64,000 nt of DNA, taken from positions 20,182 through 84,181 of the forward strand of contig CBFIFL010000001.1 in the NCBI GenBank assembly GCA_965661855.1, read 5' to 3'. The notes under the pieces were generated by a model. That model was not told the origin of the DNA and did not search any database. It was given only the letters and a program-made list of their open reading frames with translations. Below, in pieces: positions 10,600 to 29,350 of this stretch. Source of the DNA: Flavobacteriales bacterium (GTDB lineage Bacteria > Bacteroidota > Bacteroidia > Flavobacteriales_C > CBFIFL01). The stretch's first letter is position 1. The number at the start of each line of letters is the position of its first letter. The position numbers were made by a program, and so were the translations under genes.

Positions 10600-12187
<1,588 letters not shown>

Positions 12188-12192
12188 CGTTT

Positions 12193-13989
12193 TTAGAGAA
12201 TTCCAGCACCATCTTCGCTGCTAGATATCAAGCTTCTCAAGTTATTAAATAACTGTCTTCCATGTGTTGGATTAACATAAATCACTTTTCGAGGTTTTCG
12301 TTTATTCAAATCTTTTTCAAGGCATTCAATTCTTCCATTGGTTGCATCTAATAATAATTTGTCCCCCGTTTTTATTTTTCCAATTAAACCGTTTTGGGCA
12401 GCCTCCGGACTAACATGGATTGCTGCAGGAACTTTTCCTGAAGCTCCAGACATTCTTCCATCAGTGATTAGACCAACTTTAAATCCTTTTCGCTGTAAAA
12501 TAGTAAGTGAAGGAGTGAGTTTGTGTAATTCAGGCATTCCTTTTTGCTTCGGACCCTGAAATGGAAGAACTGCAATGAAATCTTTTTCTAATTCACCAGC
12601 TTTGAATGCTTGTATCAAGTCTTCTTGGTGATCAAATACAATGGCATCAGCTTCAATTTTATGATGAGTAGCTTCTACTGCTGAAGTTTTTATAACTGCA
12701 GTTCCAATATTTCCCTTTAACACTTTTAATCCTCCTGTTTTATTAAAAGGATTATTAGCACTTCTAAGTATTTTGTCGTTTAAAGAAGCTTCAGGACCAT
12801 TTTGATAATTAATTTTTCCGTTCTCTTGTTTCGGCTCTTTAGTAAACTTTCTCAAACCTTTACCAAGAATTGTATTCACATCTTCATGTAAGAATCCTTG
12901 GTCTATCATTGTTTTAATAACAAAAGACATGCCTCCCGATGCATGAAAATGATTAACGTCAGCTGCTCCATTTGGGTATATCCTGCAAATCAATGGAACC
13001 ACTTCGGATAAATCTGAAAAGTCATCCCATGTTATTTTGATTCCAGCTGCTTTTGCAATAGCAATTAAATGAAGGGTATGATTTGTTGAGCCTCCTGTTG
13101 CCAGAAGGCCGATAATTCCGTTCACTATGCTTTTTTCATTAACAATAGCTCCAATAGTTCTAGAGAAATCTCTTGATTTAATATTCTCAAGAAGAACTCT
13201 TAAAGCCTCTCTATTAAGAGCTTTTCTCATTGACGTCCCTGGGTTTACAAAACTTGATCCTGGAAGTTGAAGTCCCATAATTTCCATTAGCATTTGATTG
13301 CTATTTGCAGTTCCGTAGAATGTGCAAGTGCCGGGTGAGTGGTAAGAATCTGATTCTCCTTTTAGAAGCTGTTCTCTTCCAATTTTACCTTCAGCGAACT
13401 TTTGTCTAATACTTGCTTTTTCTTCGTTTGGAATTCCACTTGGCATCGGGCCACCTGGAAGGAATAGTGAGTGATAATGACCGAATGCAAGGTTTCCAAT
13501 TAATAATCCAGGAACAATTTTATCACAGATTCCCAAATTAACCACGCCATCATACATGTCATGAGAAAGACCGATTGCTGCGGATAGAGCAATAACATCC
13601 CTGCTCAGCAACGAAAGGTCCATTCCTGGTTGTCCTTGAGTTACTCCATCGCACATAGCTGGTGTTGCGCCTGCCACCTGAATTGTTGCATTCATTTCTG
13701 CGGCGTATGACCTTAATTCATTTGGGTATTGCTCATAAGGTTTGTGAGCTGAAAGCATGTCGTTGTAAGCTGAAATAATTCCTAAATTTGGTTTGATTCC
13801 CTCTGCAATCATTGATTTTTCATCAGCTGCACATCCAGCAAATCCATGTGCAAGATTACCGCAACTCAATCCTCGTCTTCCCGTTGAGTGATTAAAGTTA
13901 TGTTCTGTGTCTTTAAGGTACTTCTCCCTTGTCTTTATACTTCGTTCGACAATCCGAGTAGTAATTTCTTCTATTTTTTTATCTATCAT
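12193..13989 (-). CDS. edd: 6-phosphogluconate dehydratase (IlvD/EDD family)
   Basis: Co-linear with Edd across the whole 598 aa (ACGNLAHGFA, CDGVTQG, CDKIVPGL, TFYGTANSNQ, ATGGSTNHT, TDGRMSGASGKVPAAIHVSPEA). Positioned between pgl and eda. Confidence 0.85.
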   Translation of the reverse strand: MIDKKIEEITTRIVERSIKTREKYLKDTEHNFNHSTGRRGLSCGNLAHGFAGCAADEKSMIAEGIKPNLGIISAYNDMLSAHKPYEQYPNELRSYAAEMNATIQVAGATPAMCDGVTQGQPGMDLSLLSRDVIALSAAIGLSHDMYDGVVNLGICDKIVPGLLIGNLAFGHYHSLFLPGGPMPSGIPNEEKASIRQKFAEGKIGREQLLKGESDSYHSPGTCTFYGTANSNQMLMEIMGLQLPGSSFVNPGTSMRKALNREALRVLLENIKSRDFSRTIGAIVNEKSIVNGIIGLLATGGSTNHTLHLIAIAKAAGIKITWDDFSDLSEVVPLICRIYPNGAADVNHFHASGGMSFVIKTMIDQGFLHEDVNTILGKGLRKFTKEPKQENGKINYQNGPEASLNDKILRSANNPFNKTGGLKVLKGNIGTAVIKTSAVEATHHKIEADAIVFDHQEDLIQAFKAGELEKDFIAVLPFQGPKQKGMPELHKLTPSLTILQRKGFKVGLITDGRMSGASGKVPAAIHVSPEAAQNGLIGKIKTGDKLLLDATNGRIECLEKDLNKRKPRKVIYVNPTHGRQLFNNLRSLISSSEDGAGIL

Positions 13990-14657
13990 GCCTTTGAATA
14001 AAATATATTAATATCGCTTCTTCTTTTCATGACCTCATGAATCGGAAGCTTTTTAGTTTTATCGTTTAGAACCTGCCACTTGTCCATGCCCGAAATGAAA
14101 AGAATAATCGTTTGGGCAGAGCATATCAAGTCCATACCGCAGGTAATTCGATCTTGTGGGTGGTCTGGTGCGTTAGTATTGAAAATTGTTTTCTCTGATG
14201 ATTCATAAGCTGTTTTAGATCCTTCATCATCTGGGAATATAGATGCTGTGTGCCCATCTTTTCCCATGCCAAGTATAACTAAATCGGTGCGTTCGATAAA
14301 CGGGGTGTACTTTTCTCTTACGATTTGTAGGTTCTTGTATTTATCACTTTTATCAAATACCATTCCTGTTATGTTGTTTTTCTTCACCTTTTCATGCGTA
14401 AAGCAGTCTCGAATCAATCGCTCATTACTGAATTCACTCAGAGTATTAACATATCGCTCATCAACCAGTCCAAAATTTATGGAATCGATGAATTCACAAT
14501 TTTTATTCAATAACTTATATATTGGTCCAGGTGTGCTACCTCCCGACAGCAAAACCCTCACAGAATTATGCTTGGCGAGTGACTTTTCCATGGACATTAT
14601 TATGGAATTAACACCATTACTGATTAGATCCTCTTTATGATTGAAAGATTTTGTCAT
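13986..14657 (-). CDS. pgl: 6-phosphogluconolactonase
   Basis: Glucosamine-6-P isomerase/6PGL fold motifs (LLSGGSTP, GMGKDGHTASIFP). 4-nt overlaps with zwf and edd indicate an operon. Confidence 0.8.
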   Translation of the reverse strand: MTKSFNHKEDLISNGVNSIIMSMEKSLAKHNSVRVLLSGGSTPGPIYKLLNKNCEFIDSINFGLVDERYVNTLSEFSNERLIRDCFTHEKVKKNNITGMVFDKSDKYKNLQIVREKYTPFIERTDLVILGMGKDGHTASIFPDDEGSKTAYESSEKTIFNTNAPDHPQDRITCGMDLICSAQTIILFISGMDKWQVLNDKTKKLPIHEVMKRRSDINIFYSKA

Positions 14658-16108
14658 AATTCATTTGTATTCCATTTTACGTTTTCTTCCAATATTTGAT
14701 TACCAGGGCCCCATGAACCGGATTCATATAAGGTAAGAGGAACTTCTTCTTTCCAGTTCTTGGTAATTGACTCTATCCAGTGCCATGCAGCCTCAAGCTC
14801 GTCATGACGCATGAATAAAGTTTGATTCCCTCGAATAACATCCATAATTAGTCGTTCGTATGCATCTGGCATTCGGTTTTTGAATGAGTCAACAAAATCT
14901 AGTTTCAACGAAATAGGCTTAAATCTGTAGCCTCCCGGCCCTGGAACTTTACTTAACTGAACCAATTCAATTCGTTCTTCAGGTTGTAATCGTATAATTA
15001 ACTTATTTCGCAGTGGATATTTCGATTCTGGGAATATATTATGAGGAAGCTCCTTGAAATTGATGATAATATCCGAGTATCTTTTCTTCATCCGTTTTCC
15101 GGTACGCAGATATATAGGAGTGTTTTTCCAACGCCAGTTGTCGATGTTTGTTTTGATTGCAACAAAGGTTTCTGTTTCAGAATCGTAAGCGTCAATATCT
15201 TCTAAGTAAGAATTAAGTTTTTTATTGTCAACTGAACCTCTTGTGTATTGACCACGAACAACATCCTTATTTATTGTTTCTTTTGTGAAAGGACGCAAAG
15301 ACTGAAGTACTTTTAATTTTTCGTTTCTAACCGCATCAGGATTTAAATTTGAAGGAGGCTCCATGGCAATCAGACAGAGTAATTGAAGTAGATGGTTCTG
15401 CACCATATCTAACAATGCTCCGGTATGATTGTAATATCCTGCGCGTTTTTCAACTCCTAAGCTTTCTGCTACGGTAATTTGAATACTTTCAATATTGTCT
15501 GCATTCCAGGCTCTTTCAAAAAGATGATTGGCAAAGCGCAGCACCATTAGGTTCTGAACAGTTTCTTTTCCTAGGTAGTGATCAATTCTGAATATTTGAT
15601 GTTCATCAAAAGCGGTGGATATAATTTTATTTATTTCCTGACTAGATTTCAAGCTATTACCAAGTGGCTTTTCCAATACTACCTTACTTTCCTTTGTGAT
15701 CAAATCCGTTGCTTTCAATGCTTGACATATCTCTGAAAATGCACTTGAGGGAACAGAAAAGTAAAAAATTCGTTGTCTTTCAGGAGTCTTATCTAAATGC
15801 TTTTTAAGAGTTTGATAATGTTTTTGTTCGTTTTTTGCTATATGAACCAGTCTCAAGTTTTTAAAGAATTCATGTGTGTCATCATTTTCGGTTAATGAGA
15901 TGAATTCACTAACTTCTTTGATAAAATCATTTTTATCTAATTTTTCTCTGCACAAACATAGAATTTCAAACATCAAGTTAAGTTGACCTTCCTTAAATCT
16001 ATGAAAAAGAGCTGGGATTATCTTACGTTTAGACAAGTCTCCATTACCTCCGAATATCAAGATGTTGAAGGGTTTGAAGTCTGTTGAATTAACTCGATAT
16101 GATTTCAT
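14654..16108 (-). CDS. zwf: Glucose-6-phosphate 1-dehydrogenase
   Basis: Signature RIDHYLGKE, NAD(P)-binding N-terminus, 484 aa. Confidence 0.9.
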   Translation of the reverse strand: MKSYRVNSTDFKPFNILIFGGNGDLSKRKIIPALFHRFKEGQLNLMFEILCLCREKLDKNDFIKEVSEFISLTENDDTHEFFKNLRLVHIAKNEQKHYQTLKKHLDKTPERQRIFYFSVPSSAFSEICQALKATDLITKESKVVLEKPLGNSLKSSQEINKIISTAFDEHQIFRIDHYLGKETVQNLMVLRFANHLFERAWNADNIESIQITVAESLGVEKRAGYYNHTGALLDMVQNHLLQLLCLIAMEPPSNLNPDAVRNEKLKVLQSLRPFTKETINKDVVRGQYTRGSVDNKKLNSYLEDIDAYDSETETFVAIKTNIDNWRWKNTPIYLRTGKRMKKRYSDIIINFKELPHNIFPESKYPLRNKLIIRLQPEERIELVQLSKVPGPGGYRFKPISLKLDFVDSFKNRMPDAYERLIMDVIRGNQTLFMRHDELEAAWHWIESITKNWKEEVPLTLYESGSWGPGNQILEENVKWNTNEL

Positions 16109-16140: not shown

Positions 16141-16161
16141 TTTTTGTAAAAAGTACAATAA
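16141..16161. promoter_or_regulatory. 21-bp palindrome TTTTTGT-N7-ACAATAA in the divergent zwf / sugar-kinase intergenic region (candidate operator, site 1 of 4)
   Basis: Sequence tttttgtaaaaagtacaataa. Same 7-7-7 architecture as the sites at 20198, 29373 and 29560. Lies 54 bp upstream of the 16215 start. Confidence 0.5.
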
Positions 16162-16214: not shown

Positions 16215-17102
16215 ATGTTTGTAGTAGTTGAAAGTGGGTCGACAAAAGCGGATTGGATGGTAATTACCAATGGTGAAGAAAAAGCATACAGCACCAAAGG
16301 TTTTAATCCATACTTCCATTCAAAACAAGACATTTTGATCGAATTGAATGATCATCTTGAATTAGATCTTATTAAAGGAGAGGTAAAAGAATTGTATTTC
16401 TATGGTGCAGGATGTTCTAGTTCGGAATTGAATAAAATTATTGAAAACGGTTTGAAAGCCTTTTTTATCAACGCGAAAATAACAGTAAGCCACGACTTGA
16501 GTGCATGCGCATACGCCTGTTATAATGGTGTTTCGGAGATAGCATGTATTCTTGGAACGGGTTCCAATTCTTGTTTTTATGACGGTAACGAAGTTCATGA
16601 GGAACTCCCTGCATTGGGTCATATATTGGGAGATGAGGGGAGTGGAAGCTATTTTGGAAAAAGACTTTTAGCTGATTTTCTTTATGGTAAACTGCCGGCA
16701 CCTTTGCATCAAGAGCTAATCGGTAAAGGTTTAAATAGTGCGAGGATTATTGAAAATGTTTATCGAAAATCTAATGCTAATGTCTACATAGCATCTTTTA
16801 TGCCTGCGCTAGTAAGACACAAAGAGTTAGAATATTCTCAGAGTTTAATTAAAAAAGGCTTTAAAAAATTTATTGATACACATGTAAAGTGTTACAGTAA
16901 TTATAAGCAATGTGAAGTCAATTTTGTTGGATCTTTAGCGGATTTGCTTCAAGAAGAATTGATAGCGGTTTGTGAGGAATCTAATATAACGGTTGGACGA
17001 ATTATACGTAGACCACTGGATAATCTGGTTAGTTATCACAAAAACAAACAAGGAATGGCTCAAAAATCATTGAGTGCGAAGGATATAGATCAGTTGAATT
17101 GA
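16215..17102 (+). CDS. BadF/BadG/BcrA/BcrD-type ATPase family sugar kinase (N-acetylglucosamine kinase-like; candidate glucokinase)
   Basis: ASKHA-fold N-terminus MFVVVESGSTKADW and GTGSNSC motif. Length 295 aa. Confidence 0.65.
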   Translation: MFVVVESGSTKADWMVITNGEEKAYSTKGFNPYFHSKQDILIELNDHLELDLIKGEVKELYFYGAGCSSSELNKIIENGLKAFFINAKITVSHDLSACAYACYNGVSEIACILGTGSNSCFYDGNEVHEELPALGHILGDEGSGSYFGKRLLADFLYGKLPAPLHQELIGKGLNSARIIENVYRKSNANVYIASFMPALVRHKELEYSQSLIKKGFKKFIDTHVKCYSNYKQCEVNFVGSLADLLQEELIAVCEESNITVGRIIRRPLDNLVSYHKNKQGMAQKSLSAKDIDQLN

Positions 17103-17158: not shown

Positions 17159-19447
17159 ATGGGAACAAGATTAATTCTTTTCACGATTAACTTTCTTTTC
17201 GGTTTTTTTGTTGTTTCGCAAAGTAAACCATCAATCTCATCACCTGAAATTGAAGCGGAAGTAAAGTCTATTCTGTCAGCTATGTCACTGGAGGAAAAAG
17301 TAGGTCAAACATGCCAAATAACTCTGGATGTTCTTTTGGAAATAGATGCTGAAGGAAAGATTGTTGAACCCATTCGTGTGGACAAGAAAAAGATTTATGA
17401 GGCTTTAGTGGAATACAAGGTGGGTTCAATATTGAATGTTGGTTGGCATACCTTGAGCATTGAAGAGTGGGATCATGTTATGGAGAATGTTCATTCGCCT
17501 TTCAAACAGGAAAAAGTAAAAACACCAATTATTTACGGGATTGATGCTATTCACGGTGTTAATTATACGATTAATGGAACATTATTCCCTCAAGAAATTG
17601 GCTTAGCAGCTACTTGGAACCCTGATTTAGCTAAGGAGTTTGGAAACGTTACAGCCTATGAAACTAGGGCTTCAGGAATACCTTGGAACTTTTCACCAGT
17701 TCTTGATTTAGGTCGTCAACCGCTTTGGTCAAGAACATTTGAAACACTTGGTGAGGACCCTTATTTGGCTTCTGAAATGGGTAAGGCAATAATTCTCGGA
17801 TATCAAGGAACTAGTGGCCCAGATTCAGTTCATGTAGCAGCATGCTTGAAACATTTTGTTGGATATAGTAATCCATTGAGTGGAAGAGACAGAACTCCAG
17901 CATGGATTCCTGAAAAGTACATGAGAGAATTATACATGCCGCCTTTTAAGGAGGCAATTGAGCAAGGAGCGCTTACAGTTATGGTTAATAGTGGAGTTGT
18001 AAATGGTGTTCCTGGACATGCAAATTATCACTTTTTGACAGAGGTTTTAAAGGAAGAATGGGGATTTGATGGGTTTGCCGTTTCTGACTGGGAAGATTTT
18101 CTAATGCTTAATACTGTGCACAGGACAGCAGAGTCTAAGAAGGCCGGTATTGTCCAGGCAATAAATGCGGGAATGGACATGAGTATGGTGCCTAATGCTC
18201 CGCAGTATATTGAGTATTGTGATTTAATGAAAGACGCTATCAACGAAGGGAGTATTTCGATGCAACGTTTAGATGATGCAGTGAGTCGTATTTTACGTGT
18301 TAAACTTATTCTTGGCCTATACGAAAAGAGGATGAATCAGTCCGGAGAATATCCAGATTTTGCATCAAAAGAGCATAAGGAATTGGCTTTGCAATCTGCT
18401 TTAGAGTCCATTACGCTTTTGAAAAACAATGGAGTTCTCCCTCTTAAGAAAGATCAGAAAGTACTCATTAGCGGTCCTACATCAAATAATTTGACATTCC
18501 TAAATGGAGCATGGACACATACTTGGCAAGGAGATAATCCAGATTTTAATACTTCTGGTAGACCAACAGTTCTGGAGGAATTTGAGCGTATTTTGGGTAA
18601 AGAGAATGTTCTTTTTAGTCAGGGAGTAGAACTTTTTGTAGAAGATCAGTATGAGACTGCAAGGTTATTGGATACTACTGATTTCAAAATAAAAGCTCAG
18701 CTTTCTGAGGTTATTGTTCTGTGTCTGGGTGAATATCCAGCTACAGAAAAACCAGGGGATATCCGTTCTTTGAATATATCTCCTGAACAAATCAAACTAG
18801 CTGAAATGGCTTATGCCACTGGAAAACCGGTTGTCATTATTTTAATTGAAGGACGTCCTCGAATTATTCGTGATATTGTAGATGAAAGTTCGGCTATTGT
18901 TCAGGCTTATCTTCCCGGAGATTTTGGTGCTGATGCATTAGGGCAGTTGCTTTTTGGAGAAGTGAATTTTTCGGGAAGGCTTCCTTATTCATATCCTAAA
19001 TATGATGGACAAATAGAATTTTATGACCATCCTAGAAGTGTAGATAGGCACAAAAATGGTTTTAACGCCTATCAACCTGAGTGGGATTTTGGCTATGGAA
19101 TCAGTTACGCTTCATATGAATATACAAACCTAACGCTCAGTAGAAAAAATATGACAAAAGAAGACTCAATTGTTGTAACTGTAGACGTTCACAATACAGG
19201 GAATGTCGATGGGAAAGAGGTTGTTCAGTTATATATATCTGACCATTTTGCATCGCTAATACCAGCTGGTAAATCGCTTAAAGGATTTTCAAAAATTGAA
19301 CTAAAAGCAGGAGAGACAAAGAAAGTCCGTTTTGTTGTTTATGAAGAAGATTTAGTATTTTATAAGGAAAACGAGGGCTGGATTTCCGAAAAAGGTGATT
19401 TTAGTGTCATGGTGGATAATTTAGAACAAACATTTCAACTTAAATAG
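17159..19447 (+). CDS. Glycoside hydrolase family 3 beta-glucosidase (BglX-like), secreted
   Basis: Signal peptide. GH3 N- and C-domain motifs (KHFVGY, catalytic GFAVSDW) and a C-terminal fibronectin-like domain. Length 762 aa. Confidence 0.9.
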   Translation: MGTRLILFTINFLFGFFVVSQSKPSISSPEIEAEVKSILSAMSLEEKVGQTCQITLDVLLEIDAEGKIVEPIRVDKKKIYEALVEYKVGSILNVGWHTLSIEEWDHVMENVHSPFKQEKVKTPIIYGIDAIHGVNYTINGTLFPQEIGLAATWNPDLAKEFGNVTAYETRASGIPWNFSPVLDLGRQPLWSRTFETLGEDPYLASEMGKAIILGYQGTSGPDSVHVAACLKHFVGYSNPLSGRDRTPAWIPEKYMRELYMPPFKEAIEQGALTVMVNSGVVNGVPGHANYHFLTEVLKEEWGFDGFAVSDWEDFLMLNTVHRTAESKKAGIVQAINAGMDMSMVPNAPQYIEYCDLMKDAINEGSISMQRLDDAVSRILRVKLILGLYEKRMNQSGEYPDFASKEHKELALQSALESITLLKNNGVLPLKKDQKVLISGPTSNNLTFLNGAWTHTWQGDNPDFNTSGRPTVLEEFERILGKENVLFSQGVELFVEDQYETARLLDTTDFKIKAQLSEVIVLCLGEYPATEKPGDIRSLNISPEQIKLAEMAYATGKPVVIILIEGRPRIIRDIVDESSAIVQAYLPGDFGADALGQLLFGEVNFSGRLPYSYPKYDGQIEFYDHPRSVDRHKNGFNAYQPEWDFGYGISYASYEYTNLTLSRKNMTKEDSIVVTVDVHNTGNVDGKEVVQLYISDHFASLIPAGKSLKGFSKIELKAGETKKVRFVVYEEDLVFYKENEGWISEKGDFSVMVDNLEQTFQLK

Positions 19448-19448
19448 T

Positions 19449-20147
19449 ATGTCTTATAAGATTAAGTTTGATAATTTTTTCTCTTACTCATTCTCTTTAG
19501 ATTGTGTCATTTTTGGTTTTAAAGAAGGAAAGTTACATGCATTGTTGATTAAAAGAGCAATGGAGCCATACATGGGCGAGTGGGCAATTCCTGGAAATCT
19601 TGTTTATCCCGATGAAGATTTACCTGATGCGGCGAATAGAATTCTCACAGAGTTGACAAAAGTTAAAAATGTAGTTCTTCATCAAGGTCAAACATTTGGT
19701 AAACCAAATAGACATCCTCAAGGTCGCGTAATTACTAATGCTTACTTTGCTTTAGTTAGGATTGACGAAATAAATGCTTTTGCCGCTTCATGGGCAGAGG
19801 AAGTAAAATGGGTTCCGGTTAAAGAGTTACCGAGTTTAGCATTCGATCATAAAAAGATATTAGACTCTACATTTGAATTATTAAAGCAAAAACTGAAACA
19901 TGAACCTATTTGTTTCGATCTTTTACCAAAGAAGTTTCCACTGGTTGAAATGCAAAATCTTTATGAATATGCTTTCGACTCTGCATTAGATAAAGCTAAT
20001 TTTAGAAAAAAAATTAAGTCAATACCATTAATTAATCTGGAAGAAAAACAGCAGAATGTTAAACATCGTCCTGCAAATCTATTCAAATTCGATATTCAAC
20101 GTTTTTCAGAGATGGTAAAAGAGGAAAACTATCTTTTCAGAATGTAA
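19449..20147 (+). CDS. Nudix hydrolase-fold transcriptional regulator (NrtR-like; candidate sugar-utilisation regulator)
   Basis: N-terminal Nudix fold (GEWAIPGNLVYPDEDLPDAANRILTELT) followed by a C-terminal domain of about 90 aa, the expected size for the winged-helix domain of NrtR-type regulators. Starts 2 bp after the GH3 gene. Confidence 0.5.
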   Translation: MSYKIKFDNFFSYSFSLDCVIFGFKEGKLHALLIKRAMEPYMGEWAIPGNLVYPDEDLPDAANRILTELTKVKNVVLHQGQTFGKPNRHPQGRVITNAYFALVRIDEINAFAASWAEEVKWVPVKELPSLAFDHKKILDSTFELLKQKLKHEPICFDLLPKKFPLVEMQNLYEYAFDSALDKANFRKKIKSIPLINLEEKQQNVKHRPANLFKFDIQRFSEMVKEENYLFRM

Positions 20148-20197: not shown

Positions 20198-20218
20198 TTA
20201 TTGTATTATTAACAATAA
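20198..20218. promoter_or_regulatory. 21-bp perfect palindrome TTATTGT-N7-ACAATAA (candidate operator, site 2 of 4)
   Basis: Sequence ttattgtattattaacaataa, 22 bp upstream of the ATG at 20240. Confidence 0.55.
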
Positions 20219-20239: not shown

Positions 20240-21109
20240 TTGATTATGAAAAAATTATACTCTTTGATAGGAGCATCTTTTATTGTTGCTTCTTCATTTT
20301 CTCAAAACGATGTTATGGTCAGTGCTACCGATAACTGGGTTGCTTATGTGAATGTATTTGATTTACCGGCTAATGGTGGAGGCTATTTGTGGGGAAGTTC
20401 TTGGGAAGTTTCTGAAGTGAAAACTACCCTGGATCTTACTGAGAATACGGTAACTTTACAACCTAACTTCGGGTTGTATGCGGCAGATCCCACTGATGCT
20501 TATTGGGTTGACCAATCAACAATGGATGGTAACAAGTTTCTTGAAGCTTCAACTTTTGTTGAGCCAGGACCTTCTTTTAATGGCAATGATTTAACATTCC
20601 ATGGTGATATTTTATCGAATACTTTAGATCTGACTCAGTATGAGGCGCTATTTTTTATTAAAGCTTTGGATTCATTAAATGGATACCAAGATGCTTTTGG
20701 GGGATCGCAAATATATACTATGCCTTCAAGTGGATCGTTTACTGTTAGTGTCGCTGCAGCAGATATTCCTTCAGGGTTAATTGTTCAGTATGGATTTTCA
20801 GTGAGAGGAATTAATGCGGATCCTATGGATGAGAATTCATTGGGGAGTGTTGTGCTGGGAATGGATCTTACAGGTGTAAATGAATCAACAGAAGTTCAAG
20901 TCGGATTATATCCAAACCCTGCGTCAAATAATCTAAATATTTCAACGGCGGATGATGTAAATAGTATTAATATAACGAATTACGCAGGACAAACGGTTTA
21001 TTCGGGTTCAGATCGTTCAATTGATATATCTGATTTAAAGAACGGTGTATATTTTGCTCAAATTTCAACAGATAAAGGTGTGGTTACAAAGCAGTTTGTT
21101 AAAAACTAG
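20240..21109 (+). CDS. Secreted protein with T9SS type-A C-terminal sorting domain. Possible glycan-binding protein.
   Basis: Signal peptide. C-terminal roughly 80 aa match the Por/T9SS sorting-domain pattern (LYPNPASNNLNIS...NGVYFAQISTDKGVVTKQFVKN). Confidence 0.6.
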   Translation: MIMKKLYSLIGASFIVASSFSQNDVMVSATDNWVAYVNVFDLPANGGGYLWGSSWEVSEVKTTLDLTENTVTLQPNFGLYAADPTDAYWVDQSTMDGNKFLEASTFVEPGPSFNGNDLTFHGDILSNTLDLTQYEALFFIKALDSLNGYQDAFGGSQIYTMPSSGSFTVSVAAADIPSGLIVQYGFSVRGINADPMDENSLGSVVLGMDLTGVNESTEVQVGLYPNPASNNLNISTADDVNSINITNYAGQTVYSGSDRSIDISDLKNGVYFAQISTDKGVVTKQFVKN

Positions 21110-21178: not shown

Positions 21179-22180
21179 ATGAGAAATTTATTAATTATAA
21201 TAGTTCTGTTGTTTCCATTACTAGGAAGCTCACAGCAATGGGTTCAGGTTTGGTCAGATGAATTCGATGGTACTGCATTGGATTTAACTAAATGGGAACA
21301 TGAAATTGGAACAGGTAATTGGGGATGGGGTAACAATGAACTTCAATATTACACTAGCAATTCTAATAACATTTATCTTGATACAGGTTATCTTCACATT
21401 GTTGGTCGTCAGGAGCAAGTAGCCGGCTCATATTATACTTCTGCACGAATAAAAACTCAAGGTAAATTCGATTTCCAATATGGAAAAGTAGAAGCTAGGA
21501 TTAAGATCCCTTCTGGTCAGGGATTATGGCCTGCTTTCTGGATGCTTGGCTCAAACATAACGACCGTAAGCTGGCCTATGTGTGGAGAGATTGATATTAT
21601 GGAGCATGTAAACAATGAGCTAATGATACACGGAACCATTCATTACGATATGTGGGGACACACATATGAGGGTACACATGTATATACTGACGCATCAGAT
21701 TGGCATACTTACTCTATTGAATGGGATCAAGATGAGATTCGATGGTATCTTGATGAAGTAGAGTTTAATTCAACCAATATTGGAACAGGATCTGTTTCAA
21801 GAGAGGAATTTCATAATCCATTTTTCTTGCTTCTAAATCTTGCAATAGGTGGTAATTGGACCGGTAGTCCTGATGGTTCAACCAGTTTTCCTGCAATGAT
21901 GCAGGTTGATTATGTACGTGTTTATCAAGAGAGCAATAGTTTAAATGAGAATAAGGCAGAACAAACACTCACTGTTTCTCCAAATCCATCAGCTGAGTCA
22001 ATTACAATTTCATCAGATTTAAATCTGACTGAGTATACTGTTTACAATTTACAAGGTAAAAAGTTGTTTAGTGGAAATAATACAATAATTGATATTTCAT
22101 ATCTTGATTCTGGGATGTATCTCATTGATGTTAAACTCGAAACAGGTCAACAAATTAGAAGTTCTTTCATCAGAGAATAG
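21179..22180 (+). CDS. GH16 family endo-beta-1,3-glucanase (laminarinase) with T9SS C-terminal sorting domain
   Basis: GH16 catalytic motif GEIDIMEH (ExDxxE). Signal peptide. C-terminal sorting domain (LTVSPNPSAESITI...GMYLIDVKLETGQQIRSSFIRE). Confidence 0.85.
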   Translation: MRNLLIIIVLLFPLLGSSQQWVQVWSDEFDGTALDLTKWEHEIGTGNWGWGNNELQYYTSNSNNIYLDTGYLHIVGRQEQVAGSYYTSARIKTQGKFDFQYGKVEARIKIPSGQGLWPAFWMLGSNITTVSWPMCGEIDIMEHVNNELMIHGTIHYDMWGHTYEGTHVYTDASDWHTYSIEWDQDEIRWYLDEVEFNSTNIGTGSVSREEFHNPFFLLLNLAIGGNWTGSPDGSTSFPAMMQVDYVRVYQESNSLNENKAEQTLTVSPNPSAESITISSDLNLTEYTVYNLQGKKLFSGNNTIIDISYLDSGMYLIDVKLETGQQIRSSFIRE

Positions 22181-22282: not shown

Positions 22283-23530
22283 CTATTTCAATTTCAATGC
22301 TCCCCATAATGATGGAGAAAGATGAAATCCGCCTTGATCTCCACTGTTCCATCTCAATTGAGTCTGTCGACCATTATTCGTTCCTAAATCAATCGCTATC
22401 TCCATATCAATTATGGATCCTGACGCAGGCGAGAAGTTTCTAAAAGCATTAAAAGGTATTGCTATTTCTACTATGTACCCACTATCAATAGCTTTGAAAG
22501 CTATTTGCGCATTCTCAATTTTTGAGTCTGTTTTCCAGTTCCACATATATGGATTAACTCCACAGTTAACTCCTACGTGCTGATCACTGAGCAATAAATA
22601 AGGTCTTGTAGGATCAGCAGAGGGATTTGTGGAAAAAGCAATTTCAACAGCGTCTCCGTTCCATAAATTGCTCCCTTTTTGATCATTTTGACGAGGTGTT
22701 TCATCTTTTGTTTTAAAAGCTATGTATAGATTCTCTTCATTATATGCTATGGAAAACTCCTGATCTTTTAGCATTTGAAAATCTCCTTTCCATTCCGAAA
22801 TATCACCATCAACCTTAATATTTTGGACTTCTGCCGAAACCTCTTTTCTACCTCCTCCTGAAAAGGGAATTAACTTGATTGATTTGATTTGAATTTCTCC
22901 TTCAGCGAAAACTTGAATCAGTAATTGTTTAATATTAGAAGCATCTAATTTGTAAGCTTTAATAGGGAACTTACTCAATGGAATTTGAACTTTAGTCCAT
23001 TCTGCTGAAATAGATTCCTCTTGTAGAAAAGCAATATCATATCCCAGCCATGCTTGGGTTCCGCTATAATCCTCTAAGCAAAAAGCCCATGGTATATTGG
23101 TAAAGTTTTCACCTGTAGATCGAACAATCAATTCAATGGCTAAAGTGTCGATAACATAATTTAAATCTTTTCCTTTCCATCCATCCCAACCAAAGCCCAT
23201 TCCAACCCAGTCGCATCCATTTTGATCACTATTCCATTTAACATTCAAAATATTTTGAACATCATCTTCTAGTAATTTACCGGAAATACATGATACACTT
23301 TCGGTTGACCAGAAGTCTATAAGGCTTCCGTCAAAAATGTCTAATTTTGTAAAACCACGAATATTGTATTCTTCTTCGTATTCTCCATGATATAATCCAA
23401 GCTTTTTTATTCGGATTTTTTTATCAGAGTTACGCTCTTTATTTAAGTCAAGAGTGTCCTGCGCCACGATTGTTAATGTGGAAATTAGAAAAGCTAAAAG
23501 CAATTGTACTTTATGGTTGAAGTGGTGCAT
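22283..23530 (-). CDS. Secreted hypothetical protein (415 aa), possibly carbohydrate-binding. Last gene of the five-gene minus-strand operon.
   Basis: Signal peptide. Trp/Gly/Asp-rich beta-type composition. Overlaps the upstream gene by 20 nt. Confidence 0.5.
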   Translation of the reverse strand: MHHFNHKVQLLLAFLISTLTIVAQDTLDLNKERNSDKKIRIKKLGLYHGEYEEEYNIRGFTKLDIFDGSLIDFWSTESVSCISGKLLEDDVQNILNVKWNSDQNGCDWVGMGFGWDGWKGKDLNYVIDTLAIELIVRSTGENFTNIPWAFCLEDYSGTQAWLGYDIAFLQEESISAEWTKVQIPLSKFPIKAYKLDASNIKQLLIQVFAEGEIQIKSIKLIPFSGGGRKEVSAEVQNIKVDGDISEWKGDFQMLKDQEFSIAYNEENLYIAFKTKDETPRQNDQKGSNLWNGDAVEIAFSTNPSADPTRPYLLLSDQHVGVNCGVNPYMWNWKTDSKIENAQIAFKAIDSGYIVEIAIPFNAFRNFSPASGSIIDMEIAIDLGTNNGRQTQLRWNSGDQGGFHLSPSLWGALKLK

Positions 23531-24491
23531 TCTCTGTAAATATTATGTAATCTAAACCTGATTTTGCAAACCCTGAAGAAGGATCGGCAAGATGCAAGAA
23601 ACTTACTTTGTTTAATTTATCCGGATCAAAATTTCCATTACCATTTCCTCCGCCGTCTAAGTCTGAGTATTTAATTGAAATCAATCTCCATCCTTCCCAA
23701 TCGATCGGGAATTCATAGGAATATTGGTCTTCTGATTGAACATCAAAACTACCATCCTCATTTTCATCCTCATCAAAGCGGAATTGAGCCAATGTATTTG
23801 GAAGTCCGGATTCACCGTAAACAAGGGCGTTAAAATATAGGTTATCACCGTTGCTTGAAAGAGGTAGTGTTGTCTCTCCATATGCACTGGCATTGAAATC
23901 AATCAAACCAATAAGCCAGTCCCAATTTACAGTTCCTTGCATGTTATAATAACCATCATTTTGAGGAGCTGCAGCGTCAGTTTTAATACTGAAATCCATG
24001 TTCGCTCCTGATTGAATAAATGTAGACCAGCCATTGTTCCAACCTGATTCAAAATCTGCAACTACAAAGCCGTTATTAACTTTAGGTTGGTCTATAATTA
24101 CTGTTGTTAACAAGGTGTCTGTTTCTCCTTCAAAGGATAGCATTATATCACATGTCTCCGCTCTAAAAATCGGGAAGTATGTGGTACTTCCATTCCATAG
24201 AGTATTGACTTCATCTAAAACTTTACTCGTCCCAGAAATGATTTTCTGAGATCCACTGATTTGACCAGTTATCGTTAATTCCCAATCTACTATTTTAGTG
24301 AGTTCACAATTAAAGTAAACATCTTGACCTCCAGCAAAATCTACGCTGGTTTGACTCGCACTTAGAGTGGTTAATATTCCAAAATCTCCATATACATCAT
24401 AAAGATCGGGACCGTCAATTTTATCATCTGCCCCTTTTCTACAGGAAATCAGGACGGTTACTATTAAAATAAAGGATAAGTACTTTTTCAT
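23511..24491 (-). CDS. Lipoprotein, hypothetical (326 aa)
   Basis: Lipobox (VLISCRKG). Tight spacing within the operon. Confidence 0.5.
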   Translation of the reverse strand: MKKYLSFILIVTVLISCRKGADDKIDGPDLYDVYGDFGILTTLSASQTSVDFAGGQDVYFNCELTKIVDWELTITGQISGSQKIISGTSKVLDEVNTLWNGSTTYFPIFRAETCDIMLSFEGETDTLLTTVIIDQPKVNNGFVVADFESGWNNGWSTFIQSGANMDFSIKTDAAAPQNDGYYNMQGTVNWDWLIGLIDFNASAYGETTLPLSSNGDNLYFNALVYGESGLPNTLAQFRFDEDENEDGSFDVQSEDQYSYEFPIDWEGWRLISIKYSDLDGGGNGNGNFDPDKLNKVSFLHLADPSSGFAKSGLDYIIFTENAPLQP

Positions 24492-24495
24492 CGCA

Positions 24496-26187
24496 TTAAA
24501 ATTTCATCACATAAAAAATAGACATTTGATTAAATGTATATGGATTATCAACTACAAAAGTGTTAGTGTTACTCTCATACATTGCTGCTAGATATGCTTT
24601 TTTAGAAAAATCAAATCTCAATCCACTAGCTATATTTAATTCATTTCCATCTACAATAAAGTCGTTGTAATTTATAATTACATCATCGGCATTTCTGTCT
24701 GGTAATTGGTCCTTTCCCGTTGCTTTCATTAGGAAGAGATTACCCATTATAAATAAGTCGTCGATCAACTCTGCTTCTAGACCGAAGTTGATCAATGTTG
24801 AAGTTAGGTCAACATTTTGGAAAGTAAATTCACCATTTCTTGTTGTTTGTTGAAGAGTGACGCCTAACTGAGCATTTAACTCTTTTTTTCCTCCCCATAG
24901 TTTATTAGCATGAAGTGCTCCGTTCATGTTCGCTATCAGGAAAGATTTTAGATTTGTTGTTCCTTGGCCACGTATTTCAGATAGGTAGTATAATTTACCA
25001 TTTGTTTCAAAGATTTGTTTTTTATCAGAGTAATTAACCCCCATATAGGCACCTCTTCTGTTAAAAGTTGCAATTCCAAATGGGAGAGCATTATTTACGG
25101 CAGGATTATAATCCATAACACCAACTGAAATACCTTGATTTATTAAATTAGGGTCATTGTACATGTCGAACATTGATACAGGTCTCAAAATCTGTGAGTT
25201 TGTATAACGATTATAAAAACTATTTTGTTGATTGAAATTTACCCGTCGTGATTGAGCTCCAAAGCTTCTAAAATCAGGACCGTTATCCATATATCCAAAA
25301 TTGAAATTCAATCTTAATTTCTTTAAGTTCAAATAAGCACGTGTATGAACGAAATAGTCTGAAAGCTCTTTTTCAGGATAGAGGCTTTCAGAGGTAATTC
25401 CAATACCTGATTCGCCATCTAACCCATAAGTGAATTGCTCATTTTCAAATTGGAAATCGTAAGTAAAGGTACTTACGTTATTATTATAAATATTGCTATC
25501 TATTGCTGTTCCAGCTAAATCGAATACACTCACATGATTCAGACCAAGCTTAACATTTTCACCTTGGTTTATCACCATATTTCCTCCACCATAAAGTCGT
25601 TCTAAAATACTATTCAAATCAGTTGGATTAAGTCGTGAAATGAATCCATTGAATTCAATTTCGTCAATTATTTTAGGGAACTGCAAAGCGAAATTAACAG
25701 AGGCTCCTTGTTGACGCCATGTATTATTACTATAAAATGATTCATAATTTAAAACATCTTCTTTGATTTTCAGCACGCCTAATGAAGAGGTAAGGAAATC
25801 AGTATTGTGATTATAAAATGTATATGGTGTTAATTTGTAGTCAATATTTCCAATATGATAGCGCACTACATCCGCTGCAACGCCTCGAACATATAATTGA
25901 CGAACATCAAAAGATACACTACCACCCCAGAAACCTCCAAAAGCATTGTTAATCCTAAACATTCCCAAAACTTCCGTTTTTTGATTTGGATTAATTTTGA
26001 TCCCAAGGTCAAGTAAAGCGTAACCTCCAGATGATTTTGGTGCTGTAATAGAATCATTTTCAGTCATGAATTTTGAATTCGTAACCTGTGATCGTGCACC
26101 GCCAATAAATTGTACTTTCTTGCCTTGCTGCGAAAAAGCAGAAGTTGAGCACATAAACGTTAATATGATAATTGAAATACTTCTCAT
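24496..26187 (-). CDS. Predicted outer-membrane beta-barrel protein (563 aa), family unknown (porin-like)
   Basis: Signal peptide. Alternating amphipathic beta-strand composition rich in Y/N/G/F. C-terminal aromatic residue (…YVMKF). Adjacent to the next gene with zero spacing. Confidence 0.5.
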   Translation of the reverse strand: MRSISIIILTFMCSTSAFSQQGKKVQFIGGARSQVTNSKFMTENDSITAPKSSGGYALLDLGIKINPNQKTEVLGMFRINNAFGGFWGGSVSFDVRQLYVRGVAADVVRYHIGNIDYKLTPYTFYNHNTDFLTSSLGVLKIKEDVLNYESFYSNNTWRQQGASVNFALQFPKIIDEIEFNGFISRLNPTDLNSILERLYGGGNMVINQGENVKLGLNHVSVFDLAGTAIDSNIYNNNVSTFTYDFQFENEQFTYGLDGESGIGITSESLYPEKELSDYFVHTRAYLNLKKLRLNFNFGYMDNGPDFRSFGAQSRRVNFNQQNSFYNRYTNSQILRPVSMFDMYNDPNLINQGISVGVMDYNPAVNNALPFGIATFNRRGAYMGVNYSDKKQIFETNGKLYYLSEIRGQGTTNLKSFLIANMNGALHANKLWGGKKELNAQLGVTLQQTTRNGEFTFQNVDLTSTLINFGLEAELIDDLFIMGNLFLMKATGKDQLPDRNADDVIINYNDFIVDGNELNIASGLRFDFSKKAYLAAMYESNTNTFVVDNPYTFNQMSIFYVMKF

Positions 26188-28089: not shown

Positions 28090-29350
28090 CTACGTAAAAA
28101 GGTACATTCATGTAAGCAAGTTTTTCTCCATCTGTAACAAATACAAACAAACGATATCGTCCTTCAGAAGTAGGAGCTTTTAAAGTAATTTTTTCTGATT
28201 TTCCTCCTTTGATTTTTCCAGTAATTATAGGTGGTTTTCCTTCAGCATCACCTCCAGTTTTTAAATCTGTACTTTCTGGATATAGTTCCCAACGATAGGA
28301 AAGATTGTCCTTGTTTGAATCCGATGCATAAACCTGGACACTATATTTATCTCCCGGAACTAAAATAGTGTTCATTAGCTTGGAGTGTTCACCAAAAGTC
28401 AGACTGTCAATGGAGGGGGATCTTTTTTCTGGATAAGAACCTTTCCAACAGTATTGAAGAACATCAATAGCTTCAGTGGGTATCCCTTCTTCAGAGAACA
28501 AACCATACCAGGTACTCGTGTATTCTTGTTTTTGACCCCAAAGAAAAGCAAAGGACCCAATACATTGTTTCTTTTGTGAATCGATATTTTCTTGGTAGCG
28601 ACTTAGATAGGAGTTTGCTTTTGCGGTACTGGATTGTTCAACAGATGCTCCCCACATGGTCTTTTTAATTTCCCAGTGCCCTGTTGGTCCCCATTCCGTT
28701 ATCATATAAGGGCCATTGAAATTACCTTCTTTCAATACCTTTTTTACGTTAACAATATCGGCATAAGTATTTATTCCATATATGTCAACTTCGGTGAGTT
28801 CCTCCATTACAAATTTTAATTTATCTGCATTTGTCCCTGCAGTAACGGTAGATGTTGGATGATAGGGATCTTCTTCATGAATCATTTTGGCAATATCATT
28901 GACTGCTTTCCATACTTTAGTGTTTGAATAATTCAGCTCATATTCGTTTCCTATACCCCACACAAGAAGGGCAGGGTGTTCTTTATATTTTTGAACCTCT
29001 TTTCTGAATCTATCAAGTTGTGCTTTTACACGTTCTTTGTTGTTGTAGTCGAAGCCATGGCGTTCGTGTTGTACCCACAAACCTAACATTACCTTCAGAC
29101 CTTTTTTATGAGCTTCATCAAGCACTTGCTGTGCATTTTCTGTTCCCCAGGTTCGGATGGTGTTTCCTCCTGCACCTATTAATATGTCAAGATATTTATC
29201 ACCTCCGGCGCCTTTAATGAAGTAAGGCTCATCATTTACCATCAGTTTCCAATTGCCATCTTTTTCGTTTATACTAACCTTGCATACTTGAGTATGCGAA
29301 TTAACACATATAAACATAAGGGCTAGTAGGTATACAAAGTTTTTTATCAT
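28022..29350 (-). CDS. TIM-barrel clan GH-A glycoside hydrolase, GH158-like (candidate endo-beta-1,3-glucanase)
   Basis: Signal peptide. GIGNEYEL has Glu at residue 136 and MITEWGP has Glu at residue 219, matching the acid/base and nucleophile positions of clan GH-A. Length 442 aa, with a beta-rich C-terminal domain of about 100 aa. Confidence 0.6.
   Translation of the reverse strand: MIKNFVYLLALMFICVNSHTQVCKVSINEKDGNWKLMVNDEPYFIKGAGGDKYLDILIGAGGNTIRTWGTENAQQVLDEAHKKGLKVMLGLWVQHERHGFDYNNKERVKAQLDRFRKEVQKYKEHPALLVWGIGNEYELNYSNTKVWKAVNDIAKMIHEEDPYHPTSTVTAGTNADKLKFVMEELTEVDIYGINTYADIVNVKKVLKEGNFNGPYMITEWGPTGHWEIKKTMWGASVEQSSTAKANSYLSRYQENIDSQKKQCIGSFAFLWGQKQEYTSTWYGLFSEEGIPTEAIDVLQYCWKGSYPEKRSPSIDSLTFGEHSKLMNTILVPGDKYSVQVYASDSNKDNLSYRWELYPESTDLKTGGDAEGKPPIITGKIKGGKSEKITLKAPTSEGRYRLFVFVTDGEKLAYMNVPFYVDDSLQEFNNVKFKIQDLEPTEY

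Follow-up and report, generated by a model that had tools for sequence, protein, structure and literature searches.

The gene at 19449..20147 on the + strand (232 aa, ATG start; ORF list) of the window, by which we mean the whole 64-kb stretch of DNA analysed here, is labelled a "Nudix hydrolase" gene in public databases, but very probably encodes a transcriptional repressor of the NrtR/AraR family that senses a sugar and that appears to act, through four conserved 21-bp palindromes, on the laminarin-degradation and glucose-catabolism genes of a marine flavobacterium. In our main model, to which we give a probability of about 85%, a dead Nudix sugar sensor fused to a winged helix acts as an AraR-like repressor of the locus and is relieved by a laminarin-derived sugar. 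The first-pass annotation had proposed an NrtR-family sugar regulator, and this interpretation is supported. Named members of the clade carry the database labels 'NUDIX hydrolase', 'NUDIX domain-containing protein' and '8-oxo-dGTP diphosphatase'; the hydrolase labels should be corrected.

The regulator belongs to the NrtR/AraR family

The regulator gene lies directly 3' of a GH3 β-glucosidase gene (17159..19447, +; Pfam), whose product has an apparent signal peptide. The GH3 stop codon (TAG, 19445-19447) is separated from the regulator ATG at 19449 by one spacer base, in agreement with the earlier reading that the gene starts 2 bp after GH3, taken as start = end + 2. The two genes form an apparent operon, as had been proposed, and because their juxtaposition is seen again in 67 of 80 related loci it is not due to chance.

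The protein also has the domain order first read from it, an N-terminal Nudix fold followed by an extra domain of some 90 aa. Pfam placed NUDIX (PF00293) on residues 19-138, with an E-value of 4.3e-11 and a score of 43 bits (cutoff 21). The domain that makes up the C terminus, residues ~150-232 or about 83 aa, matched both NrtR_WHD (PF21906; E 6.3e-18, 65 bits, cutoff 27) and AraR_C (PF19368; E 3.5e-9, 37 bits, cutoff 23.8). The best PDB sequence match was BtAraR (BT0354) of Bacteroides thetaiotaomicron, an L-arabinose-responsive NrtR-family repressor (PDB 5BS6/5DD4/5DDG/5DEQ; PMC4666351), with 42% identity (5bs6; E 1.6e-50 over residues 12-219); SoNrtR appeared in the same search at E 1.5e-21. 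An AF2 model of the regulator, of moderate confidence (pLDDT 68.5), matched AraR over its full length in Foldseek (E 2e-20, TM 0.63-0.69), with SoNrtR as the next match, also full length (E 5.8e-15); Nudix domains were matched in this search as well. An NrtR-type architecture is thus borne out by Pfam, by full-length homology to the AraR crystal structure and by the fold search, and the fold is settled by that homology to a solved structure.

The winged helix-turn-helix domain (PF21906) spans residues 156-214 (19914..20090, +). In the AF2 model it consists of helices H165-176 and H182-188 and a hairpin, E194-200/E210-214, forming a helix-turn-helix with a β-hairpin wing. Both the recognition helix (D-K-A-N-F-R-K-K) and the wing (N-V-K-H-R-P-A) were invariant in 12 homologues. 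An intact Nudix box with no DNA-binding domain would have indicated a plain hydrolase. We looked for this combination and found instead a winged helix and, in the sequence, degraded Nudix catalytic residues, as the first-pass annotation had expected.

The Nudix box is degraded and the ligand pocket altered

The Nudix-fold ligand-binding domain (residues 19-138; 19503..19862, +; Pfam) contains a degraded Nudix box at residues 49-72 (19593-19664, +), as read from the translation. Against the signature GX5EX7REUXEEXGU, the regulator has G49-NLVYPD-E56-DLPDAAN-R64-I-L-T-E68-L-T-K-V. The suspected weakness of the Glu pattern is real: REUXEE reads R-I-L-T-E-L, in which R64 and E68 are kept and two of the three catalytic Glu residues are lost, and the closing Gly is Lys. 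R64, I65, L66 and L69 were invariant in 12 homologues, showing that the loss is clade-wide. An impaired Nudix signature is typical of NrtR-family regulators, though not universal among them. Judged from its sequence, the regulator's Nudix fold is catalytically dead, its REUXEE motif being degraded throughout the clade as it is in inactive AraR (PMC4666351).

The triad of residues that hydrogen-bonds the sugar in BtAraR (R34/R86/H131) corresponds to R36/R88/H134 in the regulator and is invariant in the clade. BtAraR V92 and F129 are kept as well, as V94 and F132. The hydrophobic specificity residues F36/G48/F49, in contrast, are M38/N50/L51 in the regulator and M / N(D) / L in the clade, and the regulator does not have the full arabinose-pocket set of AraR (R34, R86, H131, F36, G47-G48-F49, V92 and F129). 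The SoNrtR phosphate/ribose contacts N43/K76/R98 map by alignment to M38/L69/Q91. These replacements, together with an NtrR equivalog score under the cutoff, predict that the regulator is not ADP-ribose-responsive. Its N-terminal arm is strongly conserved, with Y3, F7, F11 and Y13 invariant in 12 homologues.

The regulator lies in a β-1,3-glucan locus

The first gene of the regulator operon (16215..17102, +) encodes an ASKHA/BadF-type sugar kinase, a putative glucokinase homologous to MurK/NagK-type kinases (PDB 1zxo at 7e-56). The GH3 enzyme that follows is homologous to BoGH3B (5jp0 at 1e-183). Divergent from this operon are the Entner-Doudoroff genes zwf-pgl-edd-eda-gap (10600..16108, -). 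Downstream of the regulator lies a gene for a T9SS-sorted surface protein of 287 aa (20246..21109, +), a position occupied in other genomes by T9SS proteins with CBM48-like modules. Next comes the gene for a GH16 laminarinase (21179..22180, +; Pfam) that carries a T9SS sorting domain and is homologous to ZgLamC (4crq at 6.5e-74) and to many other laminarinases; a terminator-like hairpin (21147-21169) separates the two genes. The GH158 operon (22283..29350, -) encodes a GH158 endo-β-1,3-glucanase (28022-29350, -; 9oro at 1.2e-94, 6pal at 1.5e-63), a CBM9 protein and three conserved proteins of unknown family that had no match in Pfam, NCBIfam or PDB sequence searches. A sodium:solute symporter (SSF) gene, for a probable sugar importer, lies at 29607..31259 (+). 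The GH16 laminarinase, GH158 and BoGH3B-like GH3 enzymes are all of β-1,3-glucan-specific types. At 61870-62280, tblastn gave a weak match to the regulator, but this proved to be a Crp/Fnr-family protein and not a second NrtR.

Synteny was sampled in 80 related genomes or loci, mostly from Crocinitomicaceae. Besides its place next to GH3, the regulator was near a GH16 laminarinase in 53/80 loci. The kinase was syntenic in 22/80 and zwf-pgl-edd-eda in 17-18/80, while GH158 operon genes were near the regulator in 15-20/80 and SSF in 10/80. No ara genes were found among the neighbours labelled by homology to locus proteins in the 80 loci or among 10 further neighbours scanned with Pfam: rather than araMPRDAB/abf genes, the neighbours were GH3, GH16, GH158, kinase and zwf-edd-eda. 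In clustering at 50%, the regulator clade formed a discrete group, with the score falling from 314 bits to 267 or less. The regulator is not an AraR orthologue but belongs to a separate clade tied to a β-1,3-glucan/glucose regulon. Crocinitomix-type loci have a second paralogue at zwf/kinase.

A conserved palindrome marks four promoter regions

The palindromic targets proposed in the first-pass annotation exist, in the form of a conserved 21-bp palindrome, TTATTGTA-N5-TACAATAA, that marks four promoter regions of the locus and that we take as the predicted operator. Its four copies in the 64-kb window all lie in promoter regions of the locus. O1 (TTTTTGTAAAAAGTACAATAA, 16141..16161, 24.5 bits) is in the divergent zwf<>kinase promoter region. 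O2 (TTATTGTATTATTAACAATAA, 20198..20218, 26.4 bits) lies 51 bp 3' of the regulator stop codon, and its centre precedes the T9SS surface-protein gene by 38 bp. The centre of O3 (TTATTGTAAAATATACAATAA, 29373..29393, 28.1 bits) is 33 bp upstream of the start codon of the GH158 operon, and that of O4 (TTATTGTAACATCTACAATTA, 29560..29580, 19.9 bits) lies 37 bp ahead of the gene for the Na+/solute symporter. In this window no separate operator accompanies the GH16 gene.

As a generic inverted-repeat finder missed these sites because of their short arms, we used a pattern search and a position weight matrix (PWM) trained on other genomes only. The PWM found exactly four sites in the 64 kb, scoring 19.9-28.1 bits, and nothing else above 6 bits. 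The core TTGT-N7-ACAA occurred seven times in the window against 2.3 expected, a count reached by none of 100 shuffles. When all 4-mer palindromes in the intergenic DNA of the loci were enumerated without bias, the operator motif came first (69 against 2.6 expected, z = 39). Across the 80 loci, the exact core was 27x denser in intergenic than in coding DNA, and 135 of the 140 PWM matches of at least 15 bits fell in intergenic DNA, where their spacing from start codons is conserved. A site at the position of O2, after the regulator gene, was present in most of the 80 loci, and equivalents of O3 upstream of GH158 and of O4 upstream of SSF were found in 19 and 8 cases, respectively.

When 15 zwf<>kinase spacers were aligned, O1 proved to be the conserved block that separates two divergent -7 boxes; a TAnnTTTG -7 box lies beside it at 16177-16184. 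Among O1-O4, the consensus Bacteroidetes -7 box was recognisable at O1 only, and we infer promoter overlap at O2-O4 from their distance to start codons; operator centres and start codons are 33-64 bp apart. From its position, O1 would control the kinase-GH3-regulator operon as well as zwf-pgl-edd-eda, so that the regulator would be autoregulated. Autoregulation would not be universal, because many freshwater loci carry a single site, downstream of the regulator. Scans for sigma-70 promoters and intrinsic terminators over 12.5-32 kb gave the same counts as shuffles and are uninformative for a Bacteroidota genome; in these scans no terminator was called 3' of the regulator.

When metagenomes were searched blindly for the exact 21-bp consensus, 5/120 matches lay beside NrtR-family genes and 10/120 next to locus genes, and this enrichment is the informative part of a search of low specificity. 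The other 110/120 matches, with no recognisable locus gene in the flank, are to be expected given the size of the collection and a pattern of 16 bases that is AT-rich. The same palindrome core is used by other NrtR paralogues (the XylR-like L175, L140 and L198), and for this reason adjacency and conservation were our grounds for assigning the sites to the regulator. O1-O4 could be shared by a paralogue encoded in the genome outside the window. We considered whether the change of Arg180 to Ala in the recognition helix causes the TTGT rather than GTGT half-site, and rejected this because the L140 and L198 paralogues (K-R-N-F-R-K) adjoin the same TTGTA-N5-TACAA palindrome.

Proposed mechanism and alternatives

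By analogy with BtAraR, a homodimer of the regulator would bind the TTATTGTA-N5-TACAATAA palindromes. With the four sites over or just upstream of core promoters, five transcription units would be repressed: zwf-pgl-edd-eda(-gap); kinase-GH3-regulator, giving autoregulation; the T9SS surface protein, possibly with GH16; the GH158 operon; and the Na+/sugar symporter. A sugar from β-1,3-glucan (laminarin) would then fill the Nudix pocket and re-orient the winged helices, taking the protein off the DNA and inducing all steps that lead from laminarin outside the cell to the Entner-Doudoroff pathway. We infer the DNA binding of the regulator, its repressive sign and its effector. Regulon logic and the pocket substitutions point to D-glucose as the most likely effector, with laminaribiose or a phosphorylated intermediate less likely.

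Could the regulator simply be the Bacteroides AraR orthologue, an L-arabinose-responsive repressor that happens to occupy a glucan locus? AraR is the best PDB match, the AraR_C model matches and the R/R/H triad that binds arabinose is kept, but the triad is no indicator of arabinose because it is common to ADP-ribose-binding SoNrtR. With an identity of only 42%, a clade that stands apart at 50% clustering (314 to 267 bits or less), M/N(D)/L in place of the arabinose-pocket shapers F36/G48/F49, a TTGT rather than GTGT half-site, and GH3, GH16 and GH158 as neighbours with no ara genes among those labelled in 80 loci, we regard this as very improbable. Equally hard to credit is a canonical NrtR that responds to ADP-ribose and regulates NAD metabolism, or an ordinary, active Nudix hydrolase ('8-oxo-dGTP diphosphatase'). 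The catalytic Glu residues are missing and a bona fide winged helix is present, against the Nudix fold and the database names that suggest a hydrolase. The NCBIfam NtrR match (1.3e-40) is weak, as the NtrR equivalog NF050029 scored 139 bits against a curated cutoff of 400, the ADP-ribose phosphate contacts are now hydrophobic or neutral residues, and there are no NAD genes in the neighbourhood.

A more serious alternative keeps the family and the operators but makes the protein an activator or dual regulator, or a sensor of laminaribiose or of a phosphorylated intermediate (glucose-6-P, 6-phosphogluconate, KDPG) and not of free glucose. An oligosaccharide signal would fit a core regulon that is glucan-specific across genomes (GH3, GH158, CBM surface proteins), and the second paralogue at zwf/kinase in Crocinitomix-type loci suggests a division of labour. 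We nevertheless consider it unlikely, if well short of negligible: AraR, the nearest characterised relative, is a repressor released by a free monosaccharide, and its small pocket is shut by the N-terminal arm of the partner subunit, an arm that is strongly conserved in the regulator. Operator centres 33-64 bp from start codons, and O1 between two -7 boxes, also fit occlusion. We therefore favour the AraR-like repressor relieved by a laminarin-derived sugar.

Implications for laminarin use

Laminarin ranks among the largest marine carbon fluxes. According to a paper on alginate regulation in Zobellia (PMC7641319), the pathways that regulate polysaccharide utilisation loci (PULs) in marine flavobacteria are largely unknown. 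Our literature search found NrtR-type sugar regulators described for arabinose and xylose only, and no link of an NrtR/Nudix regulator to laminarin. The clade has a precise predicted operator and a predicted regulon, both directly testable, and would add a signal derived from a hexose or glucan to the pentoses and ADP-ribose sensed by Nudix-derived proteins. More tentatively, and at slightly worse than even odds, the clade may be the first hexose/β-glucan-responsive branch of the NrtR/AraR family, its Nudix pocket re-tuned for D-glucose in place of a pentose. In that reading the changes of G48 to D/N and of F49 to L would accommodate the C6 hydroxymethyl and form a bond with it, and one small repressor would couple the capture of extracellular laminarin (T9SS surface binders, GH16, GH158), periplasmic GH3, import and the Entner-Doudoroff pathway in abundant aquatic Crocinitomicaceae. 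It would then be a testable master switch of laminarin turnover in a lineage whose locus lacks the usual SusR/HTCS-type PUL sensors.

Comparison with known regulators

BtAraR (225 aa) and the regulator (232 aa) have the same two-domain architecture, with 42% identity over their full length, and similarly degraded Nudix boxes of the form R-x-L-x-E-L (R-V-L-A-E-L in BtAraR, R-I-L-T-E-L in the regulator). The sugar-binding R/R/H triad and the recognition-helix frame D-K-x-N-F-R-K are common to both, and each gene is embedded in a glycan-utilisation operon. Operator geometry is also alike, a 21-bp palindrome xTGTA-N5-TACAx, experimentally proven as GTGTA-N5-TACAC for BtAraR and predicted with a TTGTA half-site for the regulator. 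The two differ in the pocket shapers F36/G48/F49, which become M/N(D)/L in the regulator clade, and in the intercalating Arg180 of BtAraR, which is Ala in the regulator. Whereas BtAraR controls ara genes in gut Bacteroides, the predicted regulon here comprises β-1,3-glucan hydrolases and Entner-Doudoroff genes, and the clade belongs to marine and freshwater Crocinitomicaceae and relatives.

SoNrtR of Shewanella oneidensis (PDB 3GZ5/3GZ6/3GZ8) is an ADP-ribose-responsive regulator of NAD metabolism (PMC2330246). It has the fold and domain order of the regulator, and its dimeric winged-helix binding to a palindrome resembles the mode proposed here. However, the residues with which it contacts the phosphate and adenine of ADP-ribose are not kept in the regulator, and regulon and effector class differ. 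Bacteroides XylR (BT0791; PMC3878776, PMC2330246), like the regulator an NrtR-family sugar regulator in Bacteroidota, is, in these papers, a predicted and not experimentally characterised regulator of xylose catabolism, in contrast to the glucan genes of the regulator. The XylR-like L175 gene, which is followed by an FGGY kinase gene, has the same TTGTA-N5-TACAA palindromes 5' of it; its product is ~34% identical to the regulator and has the pocket motif PGSI in place of PGDL/PGNL.

A degenerate Nudix protein of the NrtR/AraR family

The predicted regulator gene (19449–20147, + strand) starts with ATG and encodes 232 residues. As the first-pass annotation described, it follows the GH3 gene (17159–19447, +) almost without a gap: the GH3 stop codon, TAG, occupies 19445–19447 and a single spacer base precedes the regulator ATG. 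Three Pfam models scored above their curated cutoffs on the protein, namely NUDIX (residues 19–138, E = 4.3e-11), the NrtR DNA-binding winged-helix domain PF21906 (residues 156–214, E = 6.3e-18) and the AraR C-terminal wHTH model PF19368 (residues 152–222, E = 3.5e-9). The Nudix fold with a weak Nudix box and the NrtR-type C-terminal domain proposed earlier were thus both borne out. The Nudix signature GX5EX7REUXEEXGU reads G49...E56...R64-I-L-T-E68-L-T-K-V, so that the protein retains one catalytic glutamate out of three and lacks the closing glycine. As R64, I65, L66 and L69 were invariant across 12 homologues (67–81% identity), the degradation is clade-wide; members of the clade are publicly annotated as ‘NUDIX hydrolase’ or ‘8-oxo-dGTP diphosphatase’.

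Among solved structures the best match is BtAraR, the L-arabinose repressor of Bacteroides thetaiotaomicron (5BS6 and complexes; E = 1.6e-50, residues 12–219 aligned, 42% identity), followed by Shewanella NrtR (SoNrtR, 1.5e-21) and then the Enterococcus NrtR-like protein 2FML. An AlphaFold2 model, built on 12 sequences and of moderate confidence (pLDDT 68.5), contained the Nudix sheet and helix, a long linker helix, a helix-turn-helix (H165–176, H182–188) and a beta-hairpin wing, which was the winged helix that a structural check had been expected to reveal. With this model, Foldseek returned AraR first (E = 2e-20, TM 0.63–0.69) and SoNrtR second, over the full length. The alternative of a plain hydrolase, which would have kept its Nudix box intact and lacked a DNA-binding domain, clearly does not apply to this gene.

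Judged by its sequence, the regulator belongs neither with the AraR orthologues nor with the canonical NrtR proteins. Residue roles from the AraR paper (PMC4666351) were mapped through the regulator–AraR alignment. The triad that hydrogen-bonds the sugar in BtAraR (R34, R86, H131), spatially common to the ADP-ribose-binding SoNrtR (PMC4666351), is kept and invariant as R36, R88 and H134. The residues shaping the arabinose pocket (F36, G48, F49) are replaced by M38, N/D50 and L51, and the ADP-ribose phosphate and ribose contacts of SoNrtR (N43, K76, R98) by M38, L69 and Q91. The NCBIfam equivalog for the ADP-ribose-responsive repressor scored 139 bits, below its cutoff of 400.

An exhaustive HMMER search over representatives clustered at 50% identity returned 4011 of them at E ≤ 1e-10, so the family is a large one. 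The clade of the regulator amounts to about one full-length representative (60% identity, 314 bits), beyond which scores fall to 267 bits or less and identities to 42–46%. Among the 150 best representatives, the recognition-helix motif K-A-N-F-R-K occurred in three and K-R-N-F-R-K/R in 71. Four relatives of 365–392 aa (P0122, P0123, P0127, P0157) are apparent tandem Nudix–Nudix–winged-helix fusions; P0122 has two intact-looking Nudix boxes in its sequence, and the other three were judged from length and match pattern.

A conserved palindrome in the promoter regions

The motif TTGT-N7-ACAA, first noticed on reading the intergenic DNA, occurs seven times in the window against 2.29 expected, a count reached in none of 100 shuffles. 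Four of the seven, all in promoter regions of this locus, form part of a longer palindrome of 21 bp, TTATTGTA-N5-TACAATAA. These predicted operators are O1 (16141–16161, between zwf and the kinase gene), O2 (20198–20218, between the regulator and a T9SS surface-protein gene), O3 (29373–29393, upstream of the GH158 operon) and O4 (29560–29580, upstream of the symporter). A 25-bp PWM trained on other genomes only, with the window left out, found these four sites alone in the whole window (19.9–28.1 bits; everything else ≤6 bits). Positions that played no part in site selection were strongly conserved in it as well: T-T-A ahead of the core, an A at position 5 of the core, and their mirror images. 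The BtAraR oligonucleotides shifted in EMSA, GTGTATTTGATACAC, GTGTTACTTTTACAC and GTGTAAAAAAGACAC, contain GTGTA-N5-TACAC (PMC4666351). The predicted operators share their half-site length and the 7-bp spacing between 4-nt cores, but differ in the outermost base.

We examined 80 related loci from GTDB species genomes (64–81% identity to the regulator), mostly Crocinitomicaceae, Fluviicola, Lishizhenia and Crocinitomix MAGs from marine and lake samples. The core was 27-fold denser in intergenic DNA (78 in 87 kb) than in coding DNA (36 in 1083 kb). When every 4-mer palindrome with spacers of 1–11 was enumerated without bias, TTGT-N7-ACAA ranked first (69 observed, 2.6 expected, z = 39), ranks two and three being other registers of the same motif. 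PWM matches of at least 15 bits were intergenic in 135 of 140 cases. Their placement relative to the genes was conserved: they preceded GH3 by ~46 bp, the kinase gene by ~60 bp and GH158 by 12–55 bp, or followed the stop codon of the regulator by 20–65 bp. Next after the post-regulator site, most genomes carry a gene for a T9SS-sorted protein bearing CBM48-like modules; a SusC-like TonB-dependent receptor is preceded by a site in some, and many lake genomes have a site downstream of the regulator only.

A blind search of metagenome contigs found 120 exact matches to the 21-bp consensus, most of which are presumably chance, because the 16-base pattern is AT-rich and the collection very large. 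Ten adjoined homologues of genes of this locus. Five lay within ~170 bp of an NrtR-family gene, two of these being members of the regulator's clade, which argues that the palindrome is an NrtR-family operator type in Bacteroidota and lends independent support to the predicted operator assignment.

The operator core seems widely common to Bacteroidota NrtR paralogues; the core alone therefore cannot tell paralogues apart, raising the question of how cross-talk is avoided. In Crocinitomix-type loci a second NrtR-family paralogue (38–39% identity; helix D-K-R-N-F-R-R-K; an insertion in the Nudix domain) lies between zwf and the kinase gene (L050:3170–3916 and L076:271–1017, both − strand). No strong TTGTA-N5-TACAA was found in the zwf/kinase spacer of these two loci, and the arrangement suggests that two paralogues divide the glucan and glucose-catabolic regulons there. 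The 64-kb window holds no second NrtR-type gene; paralogues sharing the core motif may lie elsewhere in the genome.

Besides the two clade members, the NrtR-family genes beside the palindrome were, in the order of contigs L175 (sites at ~2320–2400), L140 (~6895–6925) and L198 (~8425–8460), a XylR-like gene with three tandem sites and an FGGY (xylulo)kinase gene after it, a paralogue that diverges from a kinase gene, and an NrtR whose Nudix box, RELKEETG, is intact.

Genes of the locus

By homology, the enzymes of the locus are of beta-1,3-glucan types. GH16 matches characterised laminarinases (ZgLamC 4CRQ, 6.5e-74), GH158 matches 9ORO (1.2e-94) and BuGH158 6PAL (1.5e-63), and GH3 resembles BoGH3B (1e-183). 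An ASKHA sugar kinase (1ZXO, 7e-56) is the first gene of the regulator operon, and zwf, pgl, edd, eda and gap are standard Entner–Doudoroff and glycolytic genes. Across the 80 loci, GH3 lay directly upstream of the regulator in 67, with GH16 a neighbour in 53, a sugar kinase in 22, zwf-pgl-edd-eda in 17–18, GH158-operon genes in 15–20 and a sodium:solute symporter in 10. An identical regulator protein with unchanged gene order was found on contigs of at least 23 metagenome assemblies.

GH158 (28022–29350, −) heads a five-gene operon (22283–29350, −) that ends with a CBM9 protein (22283–23530, −). Between them are genes for conserved proteins of 633 aa (26188–28089, −), 563 aa (24496–26187, −) and 326 aa (23511–24491, −), for which Pfam, NCBIfam and PDB sequence searches gave no match. 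The entire block is syntenic in 15–20 of the 80 loci, and the three proteins are candidate novel beta-glucan-binding or -processing proteins.

GH16 has no operator of its own in the window and lies 3′ of a terminator-like hairpin (21147–21169, GGGGAG-GTTTTG-CTCCCC then TTTTT) that separates it from the T9SS surface-protein gene. Because the hairpin precedes it, GH16 may have a separate promoter without a regulator site. The T9SS protein begins at TTG 20240 in the mechanical ORF list, but ATG 20246 (287 aa) is favoured by gene calls from metagenomes and by the spacing from the upstream operator.

Regulators of the NrtR family that respond to sugars are a known mechanism class, represented in the searchable literature by L-arabinose and D-xylose only (PMC2330246, PMC3878776, PMC4666351). 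A literature search for NrtR or Nudix regulators combined with laminarin found no paper, and PUL regulatory pathways of marine flavobacteria were described in 2020 as largely unknown (PMC7641319). The clade, the predicted operator set and the beta-glucan/Entner–Doudoroff regulon appear undescribed so far.

Proposed mechanism and effector

When the spacers between the divergent zwf and kinase genes of 15 genomes were aligned, four conserved blocks emerged: the palindrome and, after it, a T-tract, flanked by −7 boxes pointing left (CAAAnnTA as read on the + strand) and right (TAnnTTTG). In the window the rightward box lies at 16177–16184, the sole consensus −7 box found. O1 fills the space where the upstream elements of both predicted promoters should lie, and the centres of O2–O4 are 33–38 bp from start codons. 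AraR is a repressor in which arabinose turns the wHTH domains so that DNA binding is lost (PMC4666351). By analogy, the most economical model is that the regulator, on occupying the predicted operators, would occlude the promoters and repress transcription, and that a sugar would relieve this repression. In this genome the regulator would also control its own expression, as O1 precedes the kinase–GH3–regulator operon.

D-glucose is the likeliest effector, since it is the one metabolite that all steps of the predicted regulon share, as GH3 product, symporter cargo and kinase substrate. Laminaribiose or a phosphorylated intermediate is a possible alternative. In the pocket, where the hydroxyl-binding triad is kept, Asp/Asn and Leu take the places of G48 and F49, which in BtAraR pack against C5 of arabinose (PMC4666351). 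P-G-D-L is present, too, in the zwf/kinase-linked paralogue of Crocinitomix-type loci, and this weak correlation also points towards D-glucose.

The methylglyoxal synthase gene mgsA (31272–31634, +; 2.9e-46) lies 13 bp 3′ of the operator-preceded Na+/solute symporter and may be co-regulated with sugar uptake. In three related loci (L012, L015, L116) it is ~1 kb downstream of the symporter, with space for an intervening gene. The window also encodes a Crp/Fnr-family regulator (61645–62328, +) with a cNMP-binding domain and HTH_Crp_2; sugar regulons of Bacteroides are under the joint control of AraR and a Crp-like regulator.
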